From the NCBI RefSeq assembly GCF_003018235.1, contig NZ_CP027437.1: 64,000 nucleotides of DNA; one strand, written 5' to 3'. The position numbers were made by a program, and so were the translations under genes. Of this stretch, positions 6,481 to 15,730 are shown piece after piece. The stretch's first letter is position 1. Each line of letters opens with the position of its first letter. Under the pieces are notes generated by a model that was not told where the DNA came from, did not search any database, and saw nothing but the letters and a program-made list of their open reading frames with translations. Origin of the DNA: Escherichia coli. Its GTDB lineage: Bacteria; Pseudomonadota; Gammaproteobacteria; Enterobacterales; Enterobacteriaceae.

Positions 6481-6930
6481 CTAATGGTTTCTCAAAAAAA
6501 TCTTTGCGTAATTAGGATTATTTAACTCTAAGTTCACCACATTAGATTTAAAATTATAAAAATCCGCATCTCTATCATCCTCTGTAACCTTTGAATCAAC
6601 CGTCGACCACACATTCGTATAAAAACTACACTCATGCTTTCCTGGCGTAATATGGTAATCTCTGGCAATTTGTACATAGTCCCCCACCTTCATTTCTCCG
6701 GGAGAGATTTTGTAATATTCCCCTTGTCCAAGGTTGTACATTACACCTGAATAACGAATCTTCTTGCCATCACATTCAACACTCAATTGATCGGAGCTCG
6801 GATATTTACCTTGAGATATGTACCTGACATCTATATATAATGGAATTTCACCATTATTTTTAACACGTACAGCAACATAAACGTCATCTTCTTTGGGTAT
6901 AACATCCACAATAACCATGTAACATGGCAT
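6481..6930 (-). CDS. Hypothetical beta-rich protein. Candidate immunity or inhibitor for the VgrG C-terminal metallopeptidase (149 aa from the ATG at 6930).
   Basis: AT-rich ORF starting 17 nt after the vgrG stop. No signal peptide or lipobox is visible. The start is ambiguous (ATG at 6930 or 6918; the tool's upstream start overlaps vgrG). Confidence 0.45.
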   Translation of the reverse strand: MPCYMVIVDVIPKEDDVYVAVRVKNNGEIPLYIDVRYISQGKYPSSDQLSVECDGKKIRYSGVMYNLGQGEYYKISPGEMKVGDYVQIARDYHITPGKHECSFYTNVWSTVDSKVTEDDRDADFYNFKSNVVNLELNNPNYAKIFLRNH

Positions 6931-6946
6931 CCATAAATTAAGCCTT

Positions 6947-9784
6947 TTATTCAAAATAACGTTCAAAGTTATAAGCACTTTGTAATGAGGCCCGCTTACC
7001 CTTTTTAGCTAGATCTATACCACCACTTCTTAAACCCTCATCAAAACTTCCGAGCACATCATAAAAATGTGACATTTCATGAATCAAAGTTATGACTTGT
7101 GAATCACGACCGTCCAGGGGATCGTCAATAAATTTATTTCCAAGATAAATGGTATGGGTATAATCTCCATCATTAACTCTTCCATGAACATTAACATCCA
7201 TAAATTCAAAATTTTGGTACTTAATCCCCTCATTAATTTCAATTTCTTTTTTTACAGCGTTTAAAATTTTATTCCTGGCTGCCTCATCATCAACACCGAA
7301 TATATTTCCAAAACGCTCTTTATCGTTATCATTCCAACGAATCAACTCATCTCTTGCTGATTTTAATTTTTTACGCTGCGCTTCAAGAACAAGTTTCATA
7401 TCATTTTCACTGATCCTTTTCTCCTCTATCATTTCATAAACAGGATTTCCATAATTATCTGTAAGAGGTTTTCCATTATATCCAATTATAGCTACTCCAT
7501 TACCCGGCCCTGATGTAGAAAAATCTCTAATTGTATTAATTTTATATTTACCATTTGCGTCACTACCGCCAGGATTCAGTGCCAAGTGAGTAGGTCCATC
7601 AAGGATGATAGTGCCGTCTGAATTCATCACGAGAGTGCTGCTTCCCACAGTCAACGTAATGTTCGTTGCCGCAGTCAAATGAATGGCACCAGATTTTGAT
7701 GTGATGGTAATATCCCCTTCGACAGTCTCCGTGCAGGTTCCCGTTTCTACCGTCACTTCGCGTTTACCCGTTTTCACCGTCAGAGACTGGTCACCTTCTG
7801 TCACAGTAATATCCCGGTTGCCTTTGATGGTTTCGGTGTGCTTACCCTCAACAAATTCTGTGCGATCGATTTTTACCGTAGATGTTTCGTTATGAATGAT
7901 GGTTTTCGTCCGATCTGCCTTTACCGTGTGTGTTTCGTTATTTTTCACGACGGTATTCAGATCTTTCTCCGCAAGAAACCTCACTTCTTCCGCACCTGTT
8001 TTATCGTCAAAGCGCAGCATGTTTCCGTTGGTCGGCCCGCCATACAGCGAGTGGCTGAATATCCCGCTCTGCGACGCCATGCCCGGCAATCCCCACGGCG
8101 GCATGGTGTCCTGGTTATAGGTGCGCCCTACAATGATCGGTAAATCCGGGTCGCCGTTTTTGAAATCCACCAGCACTTCCTGGCCGATGCGCGGGATCTG
8201 GATCATCCCGAATCCTTTCCCCGCCCACGGGTAGCTGACGCGGATCCAGCAGGAGCTGTTTTCGTCATTCTTTCCGTAACGGTCCCAGCCAAACTGGACC
8301 TTCACCCGGCCATATTTATCCGTCCAGATTTCCTGCCCCGCAGGGCCGGTGACGATGGCGCTCTGCGGGCCTTTGGTGTGGGGTTTGCTCAGGGTTCGCT
8401 GTGGGCGGTAAACTTCGCTGGTGGGATGCAGTTCAAACGTGGTGACATAGGTAAAATGCTGCTCCTGACCGCTGTGCTGCGCATTATCCCGTAAAAACAG
8501 CGTGGTCTGTACCAGTAGGTATTCCTGGTTGACCTCTGCCGTTGGATGATTCATCAGCGTAAAGGTGTAACCCGTCATGAGGGTGCGGATATGACCTGCC
8601 CCATGTGCCCGGCTGCCGGGGCTGCGCTGCGCTTCCATACGAATGCGCGTCAGCATCTCGCCTTCGCCCGTAGTGAAGTAATCACCAGGCCATTCATAAT
8701 GCTCGTATTCAGCATGACCGGTATCACGCGGACTAGCCACGGTACTTTTAAGCAGCGAACGAGGCTTCATAAAATCAAAATCGTCCATCACCCACTTTCC
8801 AGTACGTAGCCTCTCACTGGCCGTAATGGTGTGGATAAATTCCTTGTCCAGTTTCAGACCTTCCTGGTGCCACTCCACCAGTGGCGAGTCAGGGCACGCT
8901 TTATGACCATTGATGGCATCCGCCAGCACCAGCGTATGGCTGTTCTCGCTGTGCTCAAACCACCAGTAAATTCCCCACTCCTGCATCAGGCGCTGGATGA
9001 AATCAAAATCCGTTTCACCGTACTGTACCTGCCAGGCACGAGGTGGATAATTTTCCACCAGCCGTTTTTCCACCGGAAAGGAATATTCATCCAGTACTTC
9101 ATCGAGAATATCCACCACGGTTTTATTCTGGAACGCCTTGTAGTCGCTGGTATGGGTCAGCAGCTTCAGCCATGGCTCAATGCGTAATTCATACGTTACC
9201 GAACGGCCCTCATGGCCGACCACCCGCGCTGCCGTCACCAGCCCGCTGATATACCGTTTTTCGCCACCGTCCAGTTCAATACTGACGCACAGGTCTTTGC
9301 CCACCATGGGCTGAAGCGGCAGGTTGGCAGCGGGAGAAACGTAACCCAGGTTCAGGATGTCCGGCGTTTTAAGCTGTACTGTGTAGGAAAACAGATTCCC
9401 AAGTCCTTCCGAACCATTCATGCCTGCAAACAAAAGCAACTGCGGCGGCACCGCGCTACCACTTACTGTGACGTTATGCGCCCCCGGACCACCGGCTGCA
9501 AGCGACGACGCCGCATCCTGAACTGTACCAGCCATATCCGAGATCCCTACTGCAGCAGCGGCAGCCTGCGCAGCAGTTACTGCAGCTTTAACCAGACCTG
9601 ACGGTTCCGGCAACGCACCAAACAGGTCCGCCGCGGCCTGTTCTGCCATCTCCTCGGCGGCACCAGATACATCGGTTACGGCTGAACTGGCGCTTACAGC
9701 ACTACTTTCTCCGGCTATCGGTGGCGTGGAGATAGCTGGCCCACCGTTACTGCCAGATTTATTACTCGTAGATACAAAACTCAT
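6947..9784 (-). CDS. vgrG: Evolved VgrG spike protein, 945 aa. It has an Ala/Ser-rich N-terminal extension and a C-terminal aspzincin-like (M35-like) zinc metallopeptidase domain.
   Basis: gp27/gp5-like core ([12 protein letters not shown]..., beta-helix repeats [25 protein letters not shown]...). The last roughly 207 aa are AT-rich and contain TLIHEMSHF (HExxH at nt 7067-7081). An Asp lies 9 residues after the second His (GSFDEGL), which is the aspzincin spacing. SD AAGGAA lies before the ATG at 9784. Confidence 0.9.
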
Positions 9785-9808
9785 GATATTTATTCCTTTA
9801 ATATCGGA

Positions 9809-10180
9809 TTAGAATTTAGCGCCCGGCGGCCAGAAAAAATAAGAAATAACCCGCCACTGTCCATCTTTATAATGAAAAAAACATGTCAGATTTAAATCCC
9901 CCCGCAAATGCCAAAACATTTCTTTGATGGGAATATTTCTGAATTTAGGATTTGTTGAGCGATAGGTGTTTTCAATTTCTATATAATACTCACCGACAAA
10001 TTTATAACGAGGATTTATAAATTCATACGCTGGCTGACCATAGTTATTTAATAGAACATTCTCTTCAACTCCATTATACACACCACTCGCATTCAGATAA
10101 GCATGCCCAGGAATATCAGACATGCTATTTTTCGCCCCACCCACTATCAAAAAAATTACCACAGCGTATATTAGTTTCAT
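9809..10180 (-). CDS. Secreted (signal-peptide) small protein, 123 aa. Putative periplasmic immunity for the upstream HELGH metallopeptidase.
   Basis: N-terminus MKLIYAVVIFLIVGGAKN is a classical signal sequence. Its start overlaps the upstream stop as ATGA (10177-10180). AT-rich. Confidence 0.6.
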   Translation of the reverse strand: MKLIYAVVIFLIVGGAKNSMSDIPGHAYLNASGVYNGVEENVLLNNYGQPAYEFINPRYKFVGEYYIEIENTYRSTNPKFRNIPIKEMFWHLRGDLNLTCFFHYKDGQWRVISYFFWPPGAKF

Positions 10181-10911
10181 TTTTTTACGCTTTTCACAAA
10201 AAAATTAGAACCCGGAACCATTCTATTTAACCGCTCAATGACATTTCCCATATAACGAGAGCGCAGTTCCATACCAATATTCATTAACGCACTGGCGTCC
10301 CCGGAGAATGGTGTAGTTGCTTTATCTGCATCATCACTATAGTATTCATCAGCAAGATATCCAATAATATGCCCAAGCTCGTGAGACAGCCCTATTTGCT
10401 CATGGCAAACTTTTGATGAGCCAAGACATTTAGCTGCTGCAACTATATCTTTAGAGTCAAGTTCAACGTATCGACTATTCCAGACAATGGAACTCTGTCG
10501 AAAACTATTTGGATCATCATTATCAATTTTAAACACCACCACATCCCAATACCCATGACGATCAGTCTGAATTATTTCTATTGAGAAAGATAAATCCTTA
10601 CCATTAAACTTACTGGCAAACTCAGACTTCCCAGAAACGGATAAAAAAATCTTATTATTCCATGTTTGATTAATGACAAAAATAACTTCCCCATGAAAGG
10701 TATTTTTCTCCAAATCTGTCCAGTCAGTTTTTGCATCCCATCTTTTTATCCAATTATATTTCCATCTCAGCAACAATGAGATTGCACCATTTTCACGGTC
10801 AATTCTTAAATCTCCCCAGGCATCATTGTCCCTGAAATATCGTTTATCCAGCATTAAGTCGTCATAAGCATCGTATGCCTGCTGAATAGCCTCATCATGA
10901 GAGTTACCCAT
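10177..10911 (-). CDS. Putative T6SS effector: zinc metallopeptidase with a HELGH motif, 244 aa
   Basis: HExxH at nt 10369-10383 in the context GLSHELGHIIGYLADEY, followed by ALMNIG (a possible Met-turn). Strong SD AAGGAGG lies 5 nt before the ATG at 10911; the tool's GTG at 10917 lies inside the SD. No signal peptide. Located between tagF and vgrG. Confidence 0.65.
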   Translation of the reverse strand: MGNSHDEAIQQAYDAYDDLMLDKRYFRDNDAWGDLRIDRENGAISLLLRWKYNWIKRWDAKTDWTDLEKNTFHGEVIFVINQTWNNKIFLSVSGKSEFASKFNGKDLSFSIEIIQTDRHGYWDVVVFKIDNDDPNSFRQSSIVWNSRYVELDSKDIVAAAKCLGSSKVCHEQIGLSHELGHIIGYLADEYYSDDADKATTPFSGDASALMNIGMELRSRYMGNVIERLNRMVPGSNFFVKSVKK

Positions 10912-10943
10912 GATCACCTCCTTATATTGCTATATATCCAATA

Positions 10944-11037
10944 AACCTGAAGATGCTTGCTTACCCACCAATGCAGACGGGACCAAGGGTAGCCTGAAGT
11001 CAACAGATAGCAATCAACTTGAAGTTCATGGGTATAT
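10944..11037. repeat. ERIC/IRU-related remnant (partial)
   Basis: The segment gtcaacagatagcaatcaacttgaagttcatgggtata resembles the right arm of the ERIC copy at 16018-16055 (gtcaacgcagaggcaacctgaaggataaggtgtata). Alignment was by eye only. Confidence 0.3.
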
Positions 11038-11102
11038 TTTTTCCCCATCTACACGTTTATCGTCATATTTTTGTATAGCTATTCTCAGCATTCGTGGGCA
11101 CA

Positions 11103-11867
11103 TTATTTTTTCTCCAGTCGCAAAGCATCCACATACCGCCCTTCGCTGTTCTGCTGCCAGAACCAGCCCTGCCCCTGCTGCGCCTGCGTCAGCATTTTGT
11201 CCGGCCAGCCCGGCCACGGCAGGTGGCGCACACCGGGCAGTTCCACTACCGGCGCATCCGGCAGCCCGGTGAGTTCCCGGCTACGCTGCGGCACACGTCG
11301 TAGGCCGCGCAGCCATTGCGTCCAGCGCTGCCCCGGTCGCCACATCGCCCAGAGCTGGTCGGCCTGCTCTGCCAGTCGCCCGCGCCGTTCCGCCTGTGGT
11401 GCAACCTGCGCCGCCACCAGCCGCGCCAGCCAGTACAGCCAGCCCTGTGTGTCATCCAGGCTCTCTTCCAGCCATTCCCGCCCGGCACACTGGTAAATCA
11501 CCAGTGGCCACGGCCTGCCCGTACTGTCACGCGAGGCGGTCAGTACCCCGGTCAGCCACTCATCGCGCCCACCAATGGGTAAAAATCCCGGCGATAAAAC
11601 AAAGCTCCACGGTAGCGGATGGTGTTCCGGCACCGCCGTTTTCTCGCGCGGTGACAGATGCATCCAACCGTCAGTTACTCCGGTCTTCGCAGCATCCGTT
11701 CCTTCCGGCAGAACAATATGCCGCCCCTGTCCCAGCCACGTCTGCTGGTTCAGCCACGCCTGCCACACCTGCCCTTCGTTCGCACTCACCCGCCAGCGCA
11801 CATAGTCCCGCTGGTCCGGCAGTCTGCCGAACATCGCCGGAGCCGATACCACTGCCCGGCGAATCAC
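11103..11867 (-). CDS. tagF: TagF (DUF2094) T6SS accessory protein, 254 aa
   Basis: N-terminal FGRLPDQRDYV matches the TagF signature GKLPxxGDFV. GTGA overlap with the tssM stop. An alternative ATG start exists at 11834. Confidence 0.75.
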   Translation of the reverse strand: MIRRAVVSAPAMFGRLPDQRDYVRWRVSANEGQVWQAWLNQQTWLGQGRHIVLPEGTDAAKTGVTDGWMHLSPREKTAVPEHHPLPWSFVLSPGFLPIGGRDEWLTGVLTASRDSTGRPWPLVIYQCAGREWLEESLDDTQGWLYWLARLVAAQVAPQAERRGRLAEQADQLWAMWRPGQRWTQWLRGLRRVPQRSRELTGLPDAPVVELPGVRHLPWPGWPDKMLTQAQQGQGWFWQQNSEGRYVDALRLEKK

Positions 11868-14800
11868 AGCGCTCGCTCCGGGCAGGCGAAGCGTTGCAAT
11901 AGTCCGCGATCCACTGGGTCAAAATCCCGTCCGGCGGTGATTTCCAGTATCACCCGCCGACCATCAAAGCTGTACTCCACCTGCTGTGTTCCCCGTACCG
12001 CCGTTTCTTGCGCTTTTCCCGCATCCAGCAGGTGAAACAGCGCCCACGGTCCATTAGTCAGCAGCGTCGAGGTGTCCTGGCGGATGCGCGGGCTGGCGGT
12101 TATTTCCGCCATTGAGCCGTTGCGCGGACCCGGCCAGTTAACTTTCAGCGGCCTGACCGGGCCGTGAGCGTAACGCAGTACCTGGCCGTCAATGTCAATC
12201 ACCAGTTCGGTGATGGCCGGGTCCATATCCACGACGCGGACCTGCATCGCCCATGAGAACTTTTTCCCTCCGTCGCCGTTAAAAAACACGCTGCGGATCT
12301 GTTTCGCCTCCTGAAACGGCGTCAGGTCCGGCCCCTGTAAGGTCATGTTGCCTTCGGTCGGTTTGTAGCGCCACGGATTGCTGGCGGTGTCCGCCTGTGG
12401 GGCCAGTTGCTTCGTCCAGAAGGCATCCAGCACGCCGCCGCTGGCAAAGATACGGTTAAAATCGTCCGCGCTGACCTCCTGCGGGCTGTCGGTGAAGGGG
12501 TAGCGCCCGTCGATGGCGTCGCGGCACTCATCACCGATCACCGCTTCCATCTGCGCGTTCAGCACTTCACCGGTGCCGGCGTTGATTTTTCGCGTTCCCT
12601 GCTGCGTGAGATCCAGCAGAATATTTTTCAGCGGCGCGGGCAGTTTTGCCGCCTCCAGTTGCAGTTTATCCGCCGCAGAAATGCGCCCCGGCAGAGTGCT
12701 CGCAGCCAGCGCACTGTCGGCAATGGTGAGCTGAGTGTAATACTCATTGAGCATCGTCAGCAGCGAATTTAATTGCGGCACGCCGCCGCCCTGCCCGCTG
12801 TCCGTCCGCCCGGAAACCACTTCCCGCAGGGCGGCGAAGCGGTCTTCCACCAGTGATTTTTCCAGCCGCTCTTCCGGGTGAATGTCCTGCAACAGCTTCG
12901 CCGTCTGCACCGCTTTTCCCGCATTGCCGGAGAGCCGGTCCTGCGCGCGCTGGGCCATCTGCTTTTGTCTGGCCTGCGCATCCAGAGGCGGCACCAGCGT
13001 GGTCTGCACCACCACCGCTTTACTCAGGCGCATCAGCGGGGAATCCGGCGAGGCCAGAGTGCGGAGCACCTGAAGGTCATACGCTAGTCCAGGGCTACCG
13101 TCCTCCCCGGCGCTGTTGATGCTGTGAATGCTTGCCAGAAAATCCTGCCATCGGCGAGCATATTCAGCCAGGTACAGACGACGTACCTCACGGGTAACCG
13201 GGAGTTCCTGCCCCGGTAGCTGACTCATCACAATATCAGTCGTTTTTTTTTGCGCACTTTCCCGGCCCATCACCCAGGCGTCGTCCGCTGATGCGGCGGC
13301 GACAAACTCCGACAGCCGTTTGTCGAACAGTTCCCGGTAGCCTTCGCGGGTGAAGATGCCGGGCACGCCCCTGTCCAGCGGCGCGCCATCCGTGCGGACA
13401 AAAACCGTTCCCGCATCCGCGCCCACAGCGCGAACCAGCGAAAACTCCTGCGGTGCTTCGCTCTCCATGGAAGCCAGGGCTCGAGTGTAGATACGCTCAG
13501 TGCTGTTATGGCCGTCAAGGAAGGCCCGCGCCTGGCGGATCAGCCCCTCATCTTTTTCCCAGGGCGAATGCACCACGCGGCTGCCGTCAAACAGGGCGTC
13601 AATATGCTCCAGCACGGCTGCGCGACCGCCAAACTCCGCTACGCTGTCGCGGTTGTCCAGATCGTTCAGCACCCAGGCGTGGATCTCCGCCGCGTTGTAT
13701 TTGTCCTCGTGGTCCTTATCGAGGTTCAGCAGCAGATAAACATGCAGGGCGTCATAGGCGGCTTTGCTGTCCTGACGCGCAATCGCATCTGAAAGCACGT
13801 ATTCCATTCGTTTCACCAGCGGAGGGAGCAGTAGCTGGTCCAGCAGGCGGTCATACAGGGATGCGACACTCTCCATCACCGGCGGGACGCTGTAAAGACC
13901 ATAACGCCAGGCCAGCGGCGGCGAGTCCGGGTCCATCCCCGGCCAGGCAGAGAGCGCCCGCGCCTGATTCAGCAGGGCCGGAACAGGCTGCATAGCAGGT
14001 TTTCCGGTATAGGCTTTGACATCACCATCCAGTTGGGTCGTCCGGCTGGCGATTTCATTCAGATAACCGCTGTTACCCTGCTGGCTACCCTGCATTCCCT
14101 GCCACAACCAGAAAACCAGCGCCAATACCAGCAGATGCCCGCCGGTACGCAGCAGGCGATAACGCCAGGCCCATTGAAGATTCGGCTCCACCAGGTGCGC
14201 TTCGCGGAAGATAAACCGCGTCAGTAGATCGTGCAGGAAATAGCTGCGGTTGCCGTCCGGCAGGGTATGGGATGGGGAATCTGCCTTCCCTTTGATCGCC
14301 CGGACAAAACGCTGCCAGATGCCTGTCTGATCGGCCACCGCGTCTGCCTGCGCCTGCGCGGCACTGGTGAAAAATACGCCGCGCAGGGTGTTGTTAAGCT
14401 GGGTAGCATCAAATTTTGAATCGAGGAAAATCTGTTCAATAGCTTCCAGCAGCGGCGCGCCCAGCGCGGCAAATTCACGCGGGAAGCGGTAGAGCCGCTG
14501 ACGGCTTTTAAGGTCGTACTCTTCCTGCAACCGGGTATCCAGCCCCTGATCCAGCCGCTGTGTCAGGTTTGCCAGTTCCCGGCCACAGAGCGCATGCAGC
14601 GACTGCGGATCGCTGGCGTGACGCCTGCGGCTGTAAGGCAGGGTGAAGCCCCAGACCTGGGCTCGCAGGTGACTGGTCAACCCACGGAAATACTCCGTAA
14701 AGCCCGGCAGCAGATCCATCTTGGTGACAACCAGATAGACCGGAAAACGAATGCCCAGCGTCTCCCGCAGTTCCGCCAGCCGCGCACGCAGAGCTGCACA

Positions 14801-15730
14801 GGCAGCCAGCCGTTCCGCCGGGGACTGCGCGGTCAGATCCGCCACGTTCAGCGTCAGGATCACGCCGTTGAGCGGTGCGCCTGGGCGGTGTTTACGCAGC
14901 AGCCCCAGAAACCCCTGCCATTCCCCGGCGTTACGCTGGGTCGCGCTGATTTCGCCGCCGTCATCGTGTCGGGCATAGCGCCCGGCGGTATCAATAAGCA
15001 CTGCTTCGTTGGTAAACCACCAGTCGCAGTGCAGCGTGCCGCCGCCCGGCACGGTGAGGATATGCGCGGTCTGCTCCATCTGCTCCGCCAGCGGAAACTG
15101 TAGCCCGGTGTTAAGCAGCGCAGTGGTTTTACCATCGCCGGGGCTGCCGATAACCATAAACCACGGCAGTTCGTACAGAAAACGCTTTCCTTCCAGGACT
15201 TTTCGCCAGCCAGGAAGATCCACACGCAGTTGTTTCAGTTGCCGGATGGCGCGGCTGACAATATGGCTGACGGTACGCAGGTCGGCTTTAATTTCCCCTG
15301 CCACAGGTACGTCTTCCCCACGCGGATGCAGGAAACGGCGCAGCAGTTGTTCATCCAGACGCAGCGCCCGCCACAGCCGGTACAGGCCATACAGAGCATA
15401 AGTCAGCAGGATCAGACCGATAAGCGTCAGACGCAGCCACAGCGGCGCAAATGGATGAACATCACCGAGGGACAGCAGGGGTGAAACAAAACCGATGACC
15501 AGGCACAGAACCGTCACGCCAATGATGCTCATCGACCAGTTAACCAGCCACAGTGCGAGGAACATCAGTAACAGAACGATGGTGACTACCCGACTTCCCA
15601 CGGACGCGAGCGGATGCAGGGTGTCAAACGCCACCAGCGGCCCAACAAACCAGACCAGCAACGCCAGCATCACCACGCCAACAATGGCCAGCGCGCGGCG
15701 GGAAAACAGCATACTGAGAAATTTTTGCAT
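11864..15730 (-). CDS. tssM: TssM (IcmF-like) membrane complex protein, 1288 aa
   Basis: Three N-terminal TM segments, Walker A GSPGDGKTT, and the size and position typical of IcmF/TssM. Confidence 0.93.
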   Translation of the reverse strand: MQKFLSMLFSRRALAIVGVVMLALLVWFVGPLVAFDTLHPLASVGSRVVTIVLLLMFLALWLVNWSMSIIGVTVLCLVIGFVSPLLSLGDVHPFAPLWLRLTLIGLILLTYALYGLYRLWRALRLDEQLLRRFLHPRGEDVPVAGEIKADLRTVSHIVSRAIRQLKQLRVDLPGWRKVLEGKRFLYELPWFMVIGSPGDGKTTALLNTGLQFPLAEQMEQTAHILTVPGGGTLHCDWWFTNEAVLIDTAGRYARHDDGGEISATQRNAGEWQGFLGLLRKHRPGAPLNGVILTLNVADLTAQSPAERLAACAALRARLAELRETLGIRFPVYLVVTKMDLLPGFTEYFRGLTSHLRAQVWGFTLPYSRRRHASDPQSLHALCGRELANLTQRLDQGLDTRLQEEYDLKSRQRLYRFPREFAALGAPLLEAIEQIFLDSKFDATQLNNTLRGVFFTSAAQAQADAVADQTGIWQRFVRAIKGKADSPSHTLPDGNRSYFLHDLLTRFIFREAHLVEPNLQWAWRYRLLRTGGHLLVLALVFWLWQGMQGSQQGNSGYLNEIASRTTQLDGDVKAYTGKPAMQPVPALLNQARALSAWPGMDPDSPPLAWRYGLYSVPPVMESVASLYDRLLDQLLLPPLVKRMEYVLSDAIARQDSKAAYDALHVYLLLNLDKDHEDKYNAAEIHAWVLNDLDNRDSVAEFGGRAAVLEHIDALFDGSRVVHSPWEKDEGLIRQARAFLDGHNSTERIYTRALASMESEAPQEFSLVRAVGADAGTVFVRTDGAPLDRGVPGIFTREGYRELFDKRLSEFVAAASADDAWVMGRESAQKKTTDIVMSQLPGQELPVTREVRRLYLAEYARRWQDFLASIHSINSAGEDGSPGLAYDLQVLRTLASPDSPLMRLSKAVVVQTTLVPPLDAQARQKQMAQRAQDRLSGNAGKAVQTAKLLQDIHPEERLEKSLVEDRFAALREVVSGRTDSGQGGGVPQLNSLLTMLNEYYTQLTIADSALAASTLPGRISAADKLQLEAAKLPAPLKNILLDLTQQGTRKINAGTGEVLNAQMEAVIGDECRDAIDGRYPFTDSPQEVSADDFNRIFASGGVLDAFWTKQLAPQADTASNPWRYKPTEGNMTLQGPDLTPFQEAKQIRSVFFNGDGGKKFSWAMQVRVVDMDPAITELVIDIDGQVLRYAHGPVRPLKVNWPGPRNGSMAEITASPRIRQDTSTLLTNGPWALFHLLDAGKAQETAVRGTQQVEYSFDGRRVILEITAGRDFDPVDRGLLQRFACPERAL

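Follow-up and report, generated by a model that had tools for sequence, protein, structure and literature searches.

A predicted metzincin and its exported-type partner as a candidate effector/immunity module in an Escherichia coli type VI secretion cluster

Between tagF and vgrG of a type VI secretion system (T6SS) cluster on an Escherichia coli chromosome lie two small genes, introduced here as X and Y. We propose, with a rough probability of 0.78, that they form an antibacterial T6SS effector/immunity module in which X would be a periplasm-acting zinc endopeptidase and Y its inhibitor. The window that was analysed is a stretch of 64,000 nucleotides of contig NZ_CP027437.1 (assembly GCF_003018235.1), and the cluster is of the type found in Salmonella pathogenicity island 6 (SPI-6). 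An initial annotation of this DNA had put forward a T6SS zinc metallopeptidase destined for the recipient periplasm together with an exported immunity protein. This core reading is supported by the predicted fold, the catalytic residues, the pairing of X and Y, Hcp and VgrG neighbours and domain fusions; from these we infer secretion, toxicity, the compartment in which X acts, the identity of the zinc ligands, the substrate and the inhibitory role of Y.

According to our proposal, X would be made in the cytoplasm without a signal peptide and loaded onto the VgrG spike or into the Hcp tube. Once injected into the periplasm of adjacent Gram-negative bacteria, it would act as a single-domain metzincin zinc endopeptidase. 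Zinc would be bound by H177, H181 and most likely D188, with E178 as general base and M210 in the Met-turn below the metal, and Y190 may, as in igalysins, stabilise the transition state. Our best guess for the substrate is a cell-wall-associated one: the peptide stems or cross-links of peptidoglycan, or an envelope protein tethered to it. Y would be exported to the periplasm of the producer, Sec-cleaved or membrane-anchored, and would there bind and block X arriving from sister cells.

Gene X, its family and its predicted fold

The AT-rich two-gene cassette between tagF and vgrG was borne out by the open reading frames (ORFs), by Pfam and NCBIfam matches on the flanks and by the GC profile, with values of 0.35-0.39 over positions 9800-10999 against 0.56-0.69 in the 5' part of vgrG and in tagF/tssM. 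Both genes lie on the minus strand (Table 1). The stop codon of X and the start codon of Y share the ATGA at 10177-10180, and 24 nt separate the end of Y from vgrG. The strong Shine-Dalgarno sequence AAGGAGG noted earlier is indeed present in front of X. The mechanical ORF list offers a GTG at 10917 as an alternative start, giving 246 aa, which we do not adopt because this codon abuts the Shine-Dalgarno site and because homologues begin with MGNS or MGDS. The N-terminus of X, MGNSHDEAIQQAYDAYDD, is acidic and hydrophilic, so that X lacks a signal peptide, as the initial annotation had stated. X homologues at 50-98% identity were found in Escherichia, Citrobacter and Salmonella, and Y homologues make up 38 clusters; since both have homologous families, X and Y are real genes rather than chance ORFs. 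Both are named 'hypothetical protein' in all public sources.

No Pfam or NCBIfam model reaches its cutoff on X. The best sub-cutoff matches, which cover the motif only, are Peptidase_M64 (PF09471; 15.4 bits against a cutoff of 26, residues 176-203 only) and M57 (E 0.11). A word-indexed homology search misses the family, returning 6 clusters with X alone and 11 with a 72-sequence profile, and an exhaustive hidden Markov model (HMM) search was therefore required. It covered 1.84 billion representatives; with family clusters defined at 50% identity, 335 clusters scored E<=1e-3, of which 147 also passed E<=1e-10. In 72 diverse members H177, E178 and H181 are invariant, and D188, E189, Y190, D205, M210, G213, R217 and R219 are conserved in at least 90%. 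The resulting signature is HExxH, 5-30 residues, D-E-Y, about 10 residues, and D-xx-S-[IL]-M-N-x-G-xx-[LV]-R-x-R-H. Most relatives comprise about 215 aa, have the catalytic domain right at the start and carry no signal peptide. The N-terminal helix of X (residues 5-24) is missing from most of them; it is a possible loading or recognition element.

An AlphaFold (AF2) model built on the 72-sequence alignment reached a predicted local distance difference test score (pLDDT) of 90.8 and a predicted template modelling score (pTM) of 0.85. It replaced an earlier run on 7 close sequences with a pLDDT of 75, in which residues 187-212 stayed below 50. The model predicts a single domain, composed of helix 5-24, a beta-sheet backed by a helix (66-83), the helix of the active site (174-183), the loop with DEY and the candidate Met-turn, and a C-terminal helix (218-231). 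The initial annotation had described the N-terminal 170 or so residues as Trp-rich and beta-like. This stands as a statement about the sequence; a separate Trp-rich beta domain was rejected, as the region forms the upper subdomain of one catalytic domain in the model. Comparison with solved structures showed that the overall fold resembles that of solved metzincins, and the structural neighbours are all protein endopeptidases. Judged from the model, X is thus a predicted member of the metzincin clan without a close solved relative. Sequence searches of the PDB with X, the X profile and the Y profile gave no significant match.

In the model, the HELGH motif sits on the active-site helix and is followed by G184 at +3, D188 at +7 and then E189 and Y190. 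M210, inside SALMNIGMELR and thus within the family motif S-[IL]-M-N-x-G, precedes helix 218-231 and is the candidate Met-turn residue. HELGH and these residues (G184, D188, M210) correspond to the HExxH at 10369-10383 with a Gly at +3, an acidic residue at +7 and a possible Met-turn reported before. The motif of igalysins (M64) is H539-E-x-x-H543-x-x-x-G547-x-x-D550, with Y552 as a putative 'tyrosine switch' (PMC12237041). In the M64 structure 3P1V the sequence reads HEFGHSFGGLADEY, and X reads HELGHIIGYLADEY; Asp at +7 and Tyr at +9 coincide, whereas the Gly is at +3 in X and at +4 in igalysins. This coincidence combined with the shifted Gly accounts for the marginal M64 matches, and the igalysin-like Asp at +7 makes D188 the likely third zinc ligand, as far as sequence comparison goes. 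Of the 72 relatives, only 1 matches Peptidase_M64 (E 3e-4).

Igalysins (MEROPS M64; the Thomasclavelia ramosa IgA peptidase, PDB 9QA6/9QDH; Bacteroides 3P1V and 4DF9) share with X the metzincin clan, the H-E-x-x-H-(x)6-D-x-Y spacing, an Asp as third ligand (predicted in the case of X) and, besides a C-terminal helix, the Met-turn. Adamalysins/ADAMs, pappalysins (ulilysin) and astacins are only 8-15% identical to X in sequence and use a His at +6 as third ligand, instead of the Asp at +7 predicted for X. Unlike them, X has neither a pro-domain nor a disulfide-rich lower subdomain, and it is cytoplasmically made and proposed to be an injected toxin with a dedicated immunity protein. In X, A187 takes the position of the third His (+6) of reprolysin/M12B, and there is no Reprolysin match at E<=1; the Reprolysin matches of its relatives are all sub-threshold (best 2.4e-4; cluster P0045 0.05). 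Membership in the Tox-MPTase families of polymorphic toxins found no backing: Pfam Tox-MPTase2-5 do not match X at E<=1 and are not among the 14 families that the 72 relatives match. Peptidase_M91 likewise gave no match to X at E<=1. C162 and C169 are invariant only within the enterobacterial clade and flank a beta-hairpin in the model, where a periplasmic disulfide between them is possible.

Table 1. Coordinates of X, Y and relevant flanking features in the window
Feature	Position	Strand	Assignment or basis
Gene X, ATG start, 244 aa	10177..10911	-	Candidate T6SS cargo effector, predicted zinc metallopeptidase
Gene Y, 123 aa	9809..10180	-	Candidate cognate immunity protein, predicted export
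Shine-Dalgarno AAGGAGG, 6 nt 5' of the X ATG	10918..10924	-	Direct sequence reading
HELGH of X (H177-E178-L-G-H181)	10369..10383	-	Two zinc-binding His and catalytic Glu (predicted)
D188-E189-Y190 of X	10342..10350	-	Probable third zinc ligand (D188) and Tyr; ligand role inferred
S207-ALMNIGMEL-R217 of X	10261..10293	-	Candidate Met-turn M210; conserved G213/R217
N-terminal helix of X, about residues 5-24, clade-specific	10840..10899	-	Alignment, N-termini of relatives, model
N-terminal hydrophobic segment of Y, MKLIYAVVIFLIVGGAKN	10127..10180	-	Sec signal peptide or N-terminal anchor, by sequence
Glu87 of Y in the IPIKE motif	9920..9922	-	Sole invariant residue in an alignment of 21 Y-family proteins
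Allele-specific cassette, X and 5' half of Y	10027..11114	-	blastn between alleles, GC profile
vgrG, 945 aa	6947..9784	-	TIGR03361 9.6e-166 (NCBIfam)
tagF	11103..11867	-	Pfam TagF_N 1.5e-13
tssM	11864..15730	-	Upstream of tagF-X-Y
tssH/ClpV, 493 aa	24742-26223	-	Compared with MEI003 tssH, 878 aa

Partner gene, distribution and exchangeable alleles

A degenerate DNA pattern for M-N...D-E-Y...H-E-F-G-H was scanned over 185,579 species genomes and matched at least 120 stretches. With a family HMM E<1e-20 as the definition of a true X-family member, 35 of these belong to the family; the rest are other HEFGH proteases. Among the matches listed, to which all taxa and counts of downstream and neighbouring genes given here refer, X loci come from Cellvibrionaceae, Kangiella, Luteimonas, Pseudoxanthomonas and Snodgrassella. 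Further loci belong to Rhodobacteraceae, Sphingomonadaceae, Hyphomicrobiales, Myxococcota, Planctomycetota, Verrucomicrobiota, Acidobacteriota, Thermodesulfovibrionia and many Bacteroidota. A downstream gene on the same strand follows X in 23 loci; in about 20 of them its product measures 105-197 aa and bears a lipobox or signal peptide, and the two genes are -36 to +252 nt apart. For the 113 proteins encoded next to X homologues, the top Pfam families were TssD/Hcp (7), Phage_GPD (5) and Phage_base_V (5); ClpB-type AAA and eCIS_core, the latter named after extracellular contractile injection systems (eCIS), were found twice each. The gene order hcp-X-Y-vgrG occurs in Pedobacter, Flavobacterium and Aquimarina. 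The association of the family with T6SS is strong, though not universal.

For Y, the ATGA overlap and the exported-type character claimed earlier were recovered, the N-terminus being hydrophobic and either signal-peptide-like or anchor-like. A hydrophobic N-terminal segment is present in all aligned Y homologues, and distant ones have a lipobox Cys. At E values of 5e-19 to 5e-3, the HMM of the enterobacterial Y family matches the gene directly 3' of the X homologue in 11 distant loci. These belong to Nitrospirota, Neisseriales, Bacteroidota, Rhodobacterales, Planctomycetota and Cellvibrionales, and we conclude that the X-Y pairing is ancient and co-inherited. Downstream proteins outside this HMM fall into two further mutually related groups. 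That Glu87 of Y makes an inhibitory contact is a speculative reading of the alignment.

The X domain also occurs in larger proteins. It forms the C-terminus of five proteins of 538-764 aa, whose N-terminal part is an eCIS_core (DUF4157) domain in Chitinophagales (locus L098), Aquimarina (L059), Taibaiella (L061) and Pseudanabaena (L111) and a Tox-PAAR-like module in Chitinispirillaceae (L064). With this placement on PAAR-like and eCIS carriers, the domain acts like the warhead of a polymorphic toxin. Other relatives carry cell-wall-binding modules above the Pfam cutoffs: LysM is N-terminal in 4 clusters and internal in a protein of 900 aa (L103), PG_binding_1 is N-terminal, and in one case an OmpA domain is C-terminal to the catalytic domain. 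These fused relatives have no signal peptides, and several (L082, L084, L021) are followed by a Y homologue. A phage or endolysin origin of X was rejected, as PHROGs match only the LysM or PG_binding parts of fused relatives and never the catalytic domain. BFVD structures gave no match to X at E<=1e-3. The same DNA pattern matched three stretches in 2.9 million viral contigs, including one true X-family member (L134 1736-2395 in IMG/VR IMGVR_UViG_2894445195_000001, family HMM E 3e-75), which may have been carried along by a prophage, unless it is part of a contractile-system locus wrongly classed as viral.

The slot between tagF and vgrG is polymorphic. In Salmonella SPI-6 the same tagF-X-Y-vgrG slot holds an X of 243 aa that is 48% identical over 213 aa (E 1e-68) and a Y of 144 aa that is 56% identical to that of the window. 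The Citrobacter farmeri slot has an X of 244 aa, the matching cluster P0003 being 75% identical, and other E. coli carry in this slot a diverged X allele of 233 aa (34% identity) with its own Y of 128 aa. Cassette boundaries were defined by blastn of the window against L131, L002 and L006. Similarity between alleles at the DNA level extends through tssM/tagF to about 11115 and resumes at about 10026-10056 inside Y, from where it continues into vgrG. Because it breaks at the 3' end of tagF and resumes within Y, the exchanged unit consists of X and the 5' half of Y. On the other side, vgrG and the conserved 3' half of Y appear, from these alignments, to serve jointly as the right-hand homology arm for swapping of X alleles.

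Extra copies of the 3' segment of Y were seen in Salmonella and Citrobacter. In Salmonella SPI-6 a second copy of the Y 3' end lies just 5' of vgrG (L002 6879-7150), and an X remnant of 124 aa (HEIGH...DEY...VMNIGTELR, family HMM E 9e-12) follows the X-Y pair at L003 6387-6761; together they look like a decayed tandem cassette. The extra Y 3' copies and the X remnant suggest serial insertion of cassettes as in orphan toxin arrays. In Citrobacter farmeri a pair of genes for 216 aa and 75 aa without Pfam hit (L006 3557-4431) is located between tagF and X. The 216-aa protein is rich in Gly and Ala and has a hydrophobic C-terminal half, and the pair may represent another effector/immunity pair of the variable region. 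Two E. coli loci (L128, L129) have kept the 233-aa allele and its partner between rnt and yafV/ivy, with the T6SS reduced to a vgrG fragment and Rhs remnants. Such survival in degraded T6SS remnants fits retention for immunity.

Delivery, substrate and alternative readings

Since the partner is exported in every clade, X would act in the periplasm, and since signal-less relatives carry peptidoglycan-binding modules, its target would be the cell wall or a component bound to it. In the initial annotation X was proposed to be delivered by the VgrG next to it, a route suggested by adjacency. No adaptor gene of the DUF4123, DUF1795 or DUF2169 type was found beside X, the downstream DcrB/Eag belonging to the PAAR-Rhs effector, and the VgrG of the cluster already bears a C-terminal toxin domain of its own (aspzincin-like). 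With vgrG adjoining in Enterobacteria and X located in the hcp-vgrG interval in Bacteroidota, VgrG-borne and Hcp-borne delivery are equally possible.

Several points weigh against the proposed module. Most X loci outside Bacteroidota and Enterobacteria have no T6SS gene within the retrieved 8-kb chunk, and the searched literature yielded no experiment on any X-family member. The spacer between HExxH and DEY ranges from about 5 to 30 residues across the family, unlike in canonical metzincins, for which reason the ligand role of D188 is deduced rather than seen. The Y proteins of the enterobacterial clade have no lipobox and a non-canonical cleavage site; to judge by sequence, their N-terminus may be an anchor instead of a cleaved signal. 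PG_binding_1 is also the pro-domain of matrix metalloproteinases, which renders that fusion ambiguous, and metzincins are classically protein endopeptidases rather than muropeptidases. Finally, relative to the near-identical annotated strain E. coli MEI003, tssH of the window lacks 1152 bp, equivalent to 384 codons in frame (about residues 363-746), and current T6SS delivery by this strain is therefore doubtful.

Given the ambiguity of PG_binding_1 and the preference of metzincins for proteins, a peptidoglycan peptide and a wall-associated envelope protein are about equally likely as substrate of X. The more specific alternative that X cleaves a particular envelope protein and not peptidoglycan (e.g. 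Braun lipoprotein, OmpA, Pal, a chaperone of the periplasm or a component of the divisome or elongasome) is a serious one, to which we give slightly less than an even chance once the effector/immunity architecture is accepted. In that case LysM and PG_binding fusions would merely tether the enzyme near the wall. The endopeptidase character of all structural neighbours speaks for it, and so does the igalysin-like DEY motif, which comes from a family with strict protein specificity (PMC12237041). A T6SS metallopeptidase able to act in the periplasm is also known from VgrG2b of P. aeruginosa, as cited in PMC8867033. The PG-binding fusions, however, fit either substrate.

A different question is whether X-Y is a silent passenger in this genome, kept for immunity or decaying, with the T6SS crippled by the ClpV deletion. 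This is unlikely in our view, without being far-fetched, and it bears on the present activity of the strain and not on the identity of the genes. Besides the in-frame loss of 384 codons in tssH and the X-Y pairs surviving in degraded T6SS remnants, the state of MEI003 argues in this direction, where Y is annotated as frameshifted and vgrG as truncated (L001 12110-12482 and 9908-12085, 99.8% identical DNA; vgrG lacks its C-terminus). In the window, by contrast, X and Y are intact, with an optimal Shine-Dalgarno sequence and translational coupling, as is vgrG. The deletion junction in tssH lies at a 15-bp repeat common to both AAA+ domains, so the gap is either a real deletion crippling sheath recycling or an assembly collapse between the two domains. 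Even with a defective ClpV, residual ClpV-independent firing is known in some T6SSs.

An antibacterial role of X is also preferred over a mainly anti-eukaryotic one with Y not being an immunity protein, which we regard as improbable. Metzincins often attack eukaryotic extracellular or cytoskeletal proteins, and some T6SS metallopeptidases such as VgrG2b are called trans-kingdom (PMC8867033). Yet the exported partner is tightly coupled to X and conserved in free-living soil, marine and insect-gut bacteria of many phyla, which is a hallmark of self-protection against a periplasm-acting toxin, and relatives are fused to bacterial cell-wall-binding modules. Least probable by some distance is that X is a wall-remodelling enzyme of the apparatus (like TagX or MltE) that opens the cell's own peptidoglycan for T6SS assembly, with Y as regulator: its position inside the structural operon between tagF and vgrG and the cell-wall-binding domains of relatives would suit such a role, but X has no signal peptide or membrane anchor and hence no route to its own periplasm, its slot is polymorphic with alleles only 34-48% identical, this allele is found in 18 of 5426 genomes as opposed to 434 matching the tssH-tssB segment, the slot is absent from many clusters of the same type, orphan X-Y pairs are frequent, and the domain is also a C-terminal toxin on PAAR-like and eCIS carriers.

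Taking the effector/immunity proposal further, X may found a family of toxin metzincins of about 215 aa without pro-domain, present in at least 8 phyla as T6SS cargo or fused to PAAR-like and eCIS carriers. The Y family would then be inhibitors with a Glu plugging the zinc site, and the substrate possibly a new T6SS target. We put forward this combined scenario tentatively, since the odds for all of its parts together are somewhat against it.

Relation to known effectors and the surrounding cluster

Relatives of X have been noticed in Salmonella before. ORFs of 243 aa in variable region 2 (VR2) of SPI-6 were listed by the Blondel laboratory as candidate peptidoglycan-targeting effectors (Front Microbiol 2023, PMC10469887), divided into a 'Reprolysin_4' group (SESEF3709_03438 and others, in Senftenberg and Tennessee) and a 'Peptidase_M64' group (NCTC7411_03656). 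Their partners measure 84-144 aa and have a signal peptide or a transmembrane segment (PMC10469887). The M64 candidate was tallied in 2024 in Senftenberg, Tennessee, Montevideo, Give and Braenderup (PMC11669294). Both listings are purely bioinformatic, and the activity given, 'amidase', is a prediction (PMC10469887, PMC11669294). An experimental test of the VR2 candidates was found neither in a 2025 review nor in later papers or the other literature searched. These candidates lie 3' of tssM/tagF and 5' of vgrG, as X does, and belong to the same length class; the serovars named for them match the source serovars of the X and Y homologues. By slot, length and serovar, the Salmonella counterpart of X very probably corresponds to the published 'Peptidase_M64'/'Reprolysin_4' candidates.

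The claim of the initial annotation that the pair is new therefore holds in part: its Salmonella relatives (48% identity for X, 56% for Y) were already candidate effectors, and the E. coli allele is distinct and diverged. The labels of the VR2 candidates come from sub-threshold domain hits. New here is the model-based assignment of a metzincin fold with igalysin-like DEY spacing, as against the published 'amidase' prediction. Also new are the size and phyletic breadth of the X family, the co-conserved immunity family, the PAAR-like, eCIS and PG-binding fusions and the recombination boundaries of the cassette. X-Y is the kind of feature to be expected in a T6SS variable region and was partly anticipated in the Salmonella literature.

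Among T6SS effectors, the C-terminal metallopeptidase of VgrG2b of P. aeruginosa (PMC8867033) and the Salmonella Rhs-M91 effector SED_RS06335 (PMC13556075) are, according to these papers, T6SS-delivered antibacterial HExxH enzymes countered by a partner; for X, delivery is a prediction. Both are M91-type domains on VgrG or Rhs carriers, whereas X would be free-standing cargo of another family. Tae4/Tai4 and Tlde1/Tldi1 of the same cluster resemble X-Y in that a small signal-less cargo effector is followed by a periplasmic immunity gene in a variable region. Tae4, a cysteine amidase, and Tlde1, an L,D-transpeptidase-like enzyme, target the cell wall and are not zinc metzincins, as X is predicted to be.

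Periplasm-acting T6SS toxins have repeatedly revealed weak spots of the Gram-negative envelope. The X family is widespread (335 clusters; E. coli, Salmonella, Citrobacter and many environmental phyla), yet it has no curated model or solved structure, and it is accompanied by a proposed inhibitor family of its own. Discovery of its substrate would extend the range of T6SS targets by a new class and would also bring a new protein inhibitor of metzincins. The exchangeable alleles between tagF and vgrG likely contribute to strain-level incompatibility in E. coli and Salmonella populations.

Of 5426 complete genomes, 18 contain the region 9700-11100 with an identity of at least 96.7%. In MEI003 the SPI-6-type T6SS adjoins yafV, and the order is tssC, tae4, tai4, hcp, tssJ, tssK, tssL, tlde1 with its partner, tssM, tagF, X, Y, vgrG, a hypothetical gene, DcrB/Eag and PAAR-Rhs. 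The cluster contains Tae4/Tai4, Tlde1 and Eag-PAAR-Rhs besides the core genes tssB, C, E, F, G, J, K, L, M, hcp and tssA; verified in the window were Tae4, Tai4, Tlde1, DcrB, PAAR-Rhs, TssB, C, E, F, G, A and TagK. A promoter and terminator scan of 9600-11300 gave nothing above the shuffled expectation and no terminator-like site. X and Y are probably co-transcribed in a tssM-tagF-X-Y-vgrG operon by read-through from tssM-tagF.

The C-terminus of VgrG (6947-7501, minus strand) is an AT-rich HEMSH domain of about 185 aa that resembles aspzincins. Scanned alone, it matches Pfam Aspzincin_M35 with 31.1 bits (cutoff 30), and a phmmer comparison with the toxic endopeptidase AsaP1 of Aeromonas (2X3A) gave an E of 1.2e-4. 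Kinship of X with this domain was rejected (hhalign probability 1%), and the cluster thus carries a second, different metallopeptidase warhead. An AT-rich ORF of 165 codons (6481-6978, minus strand) shares 32 nt with the end of vgrG. It matches nothing in Pfam or the PDB, no obvious signal peptide was seen in it, and it may encode an immunity protein against the C-terminal domain of VgrG.

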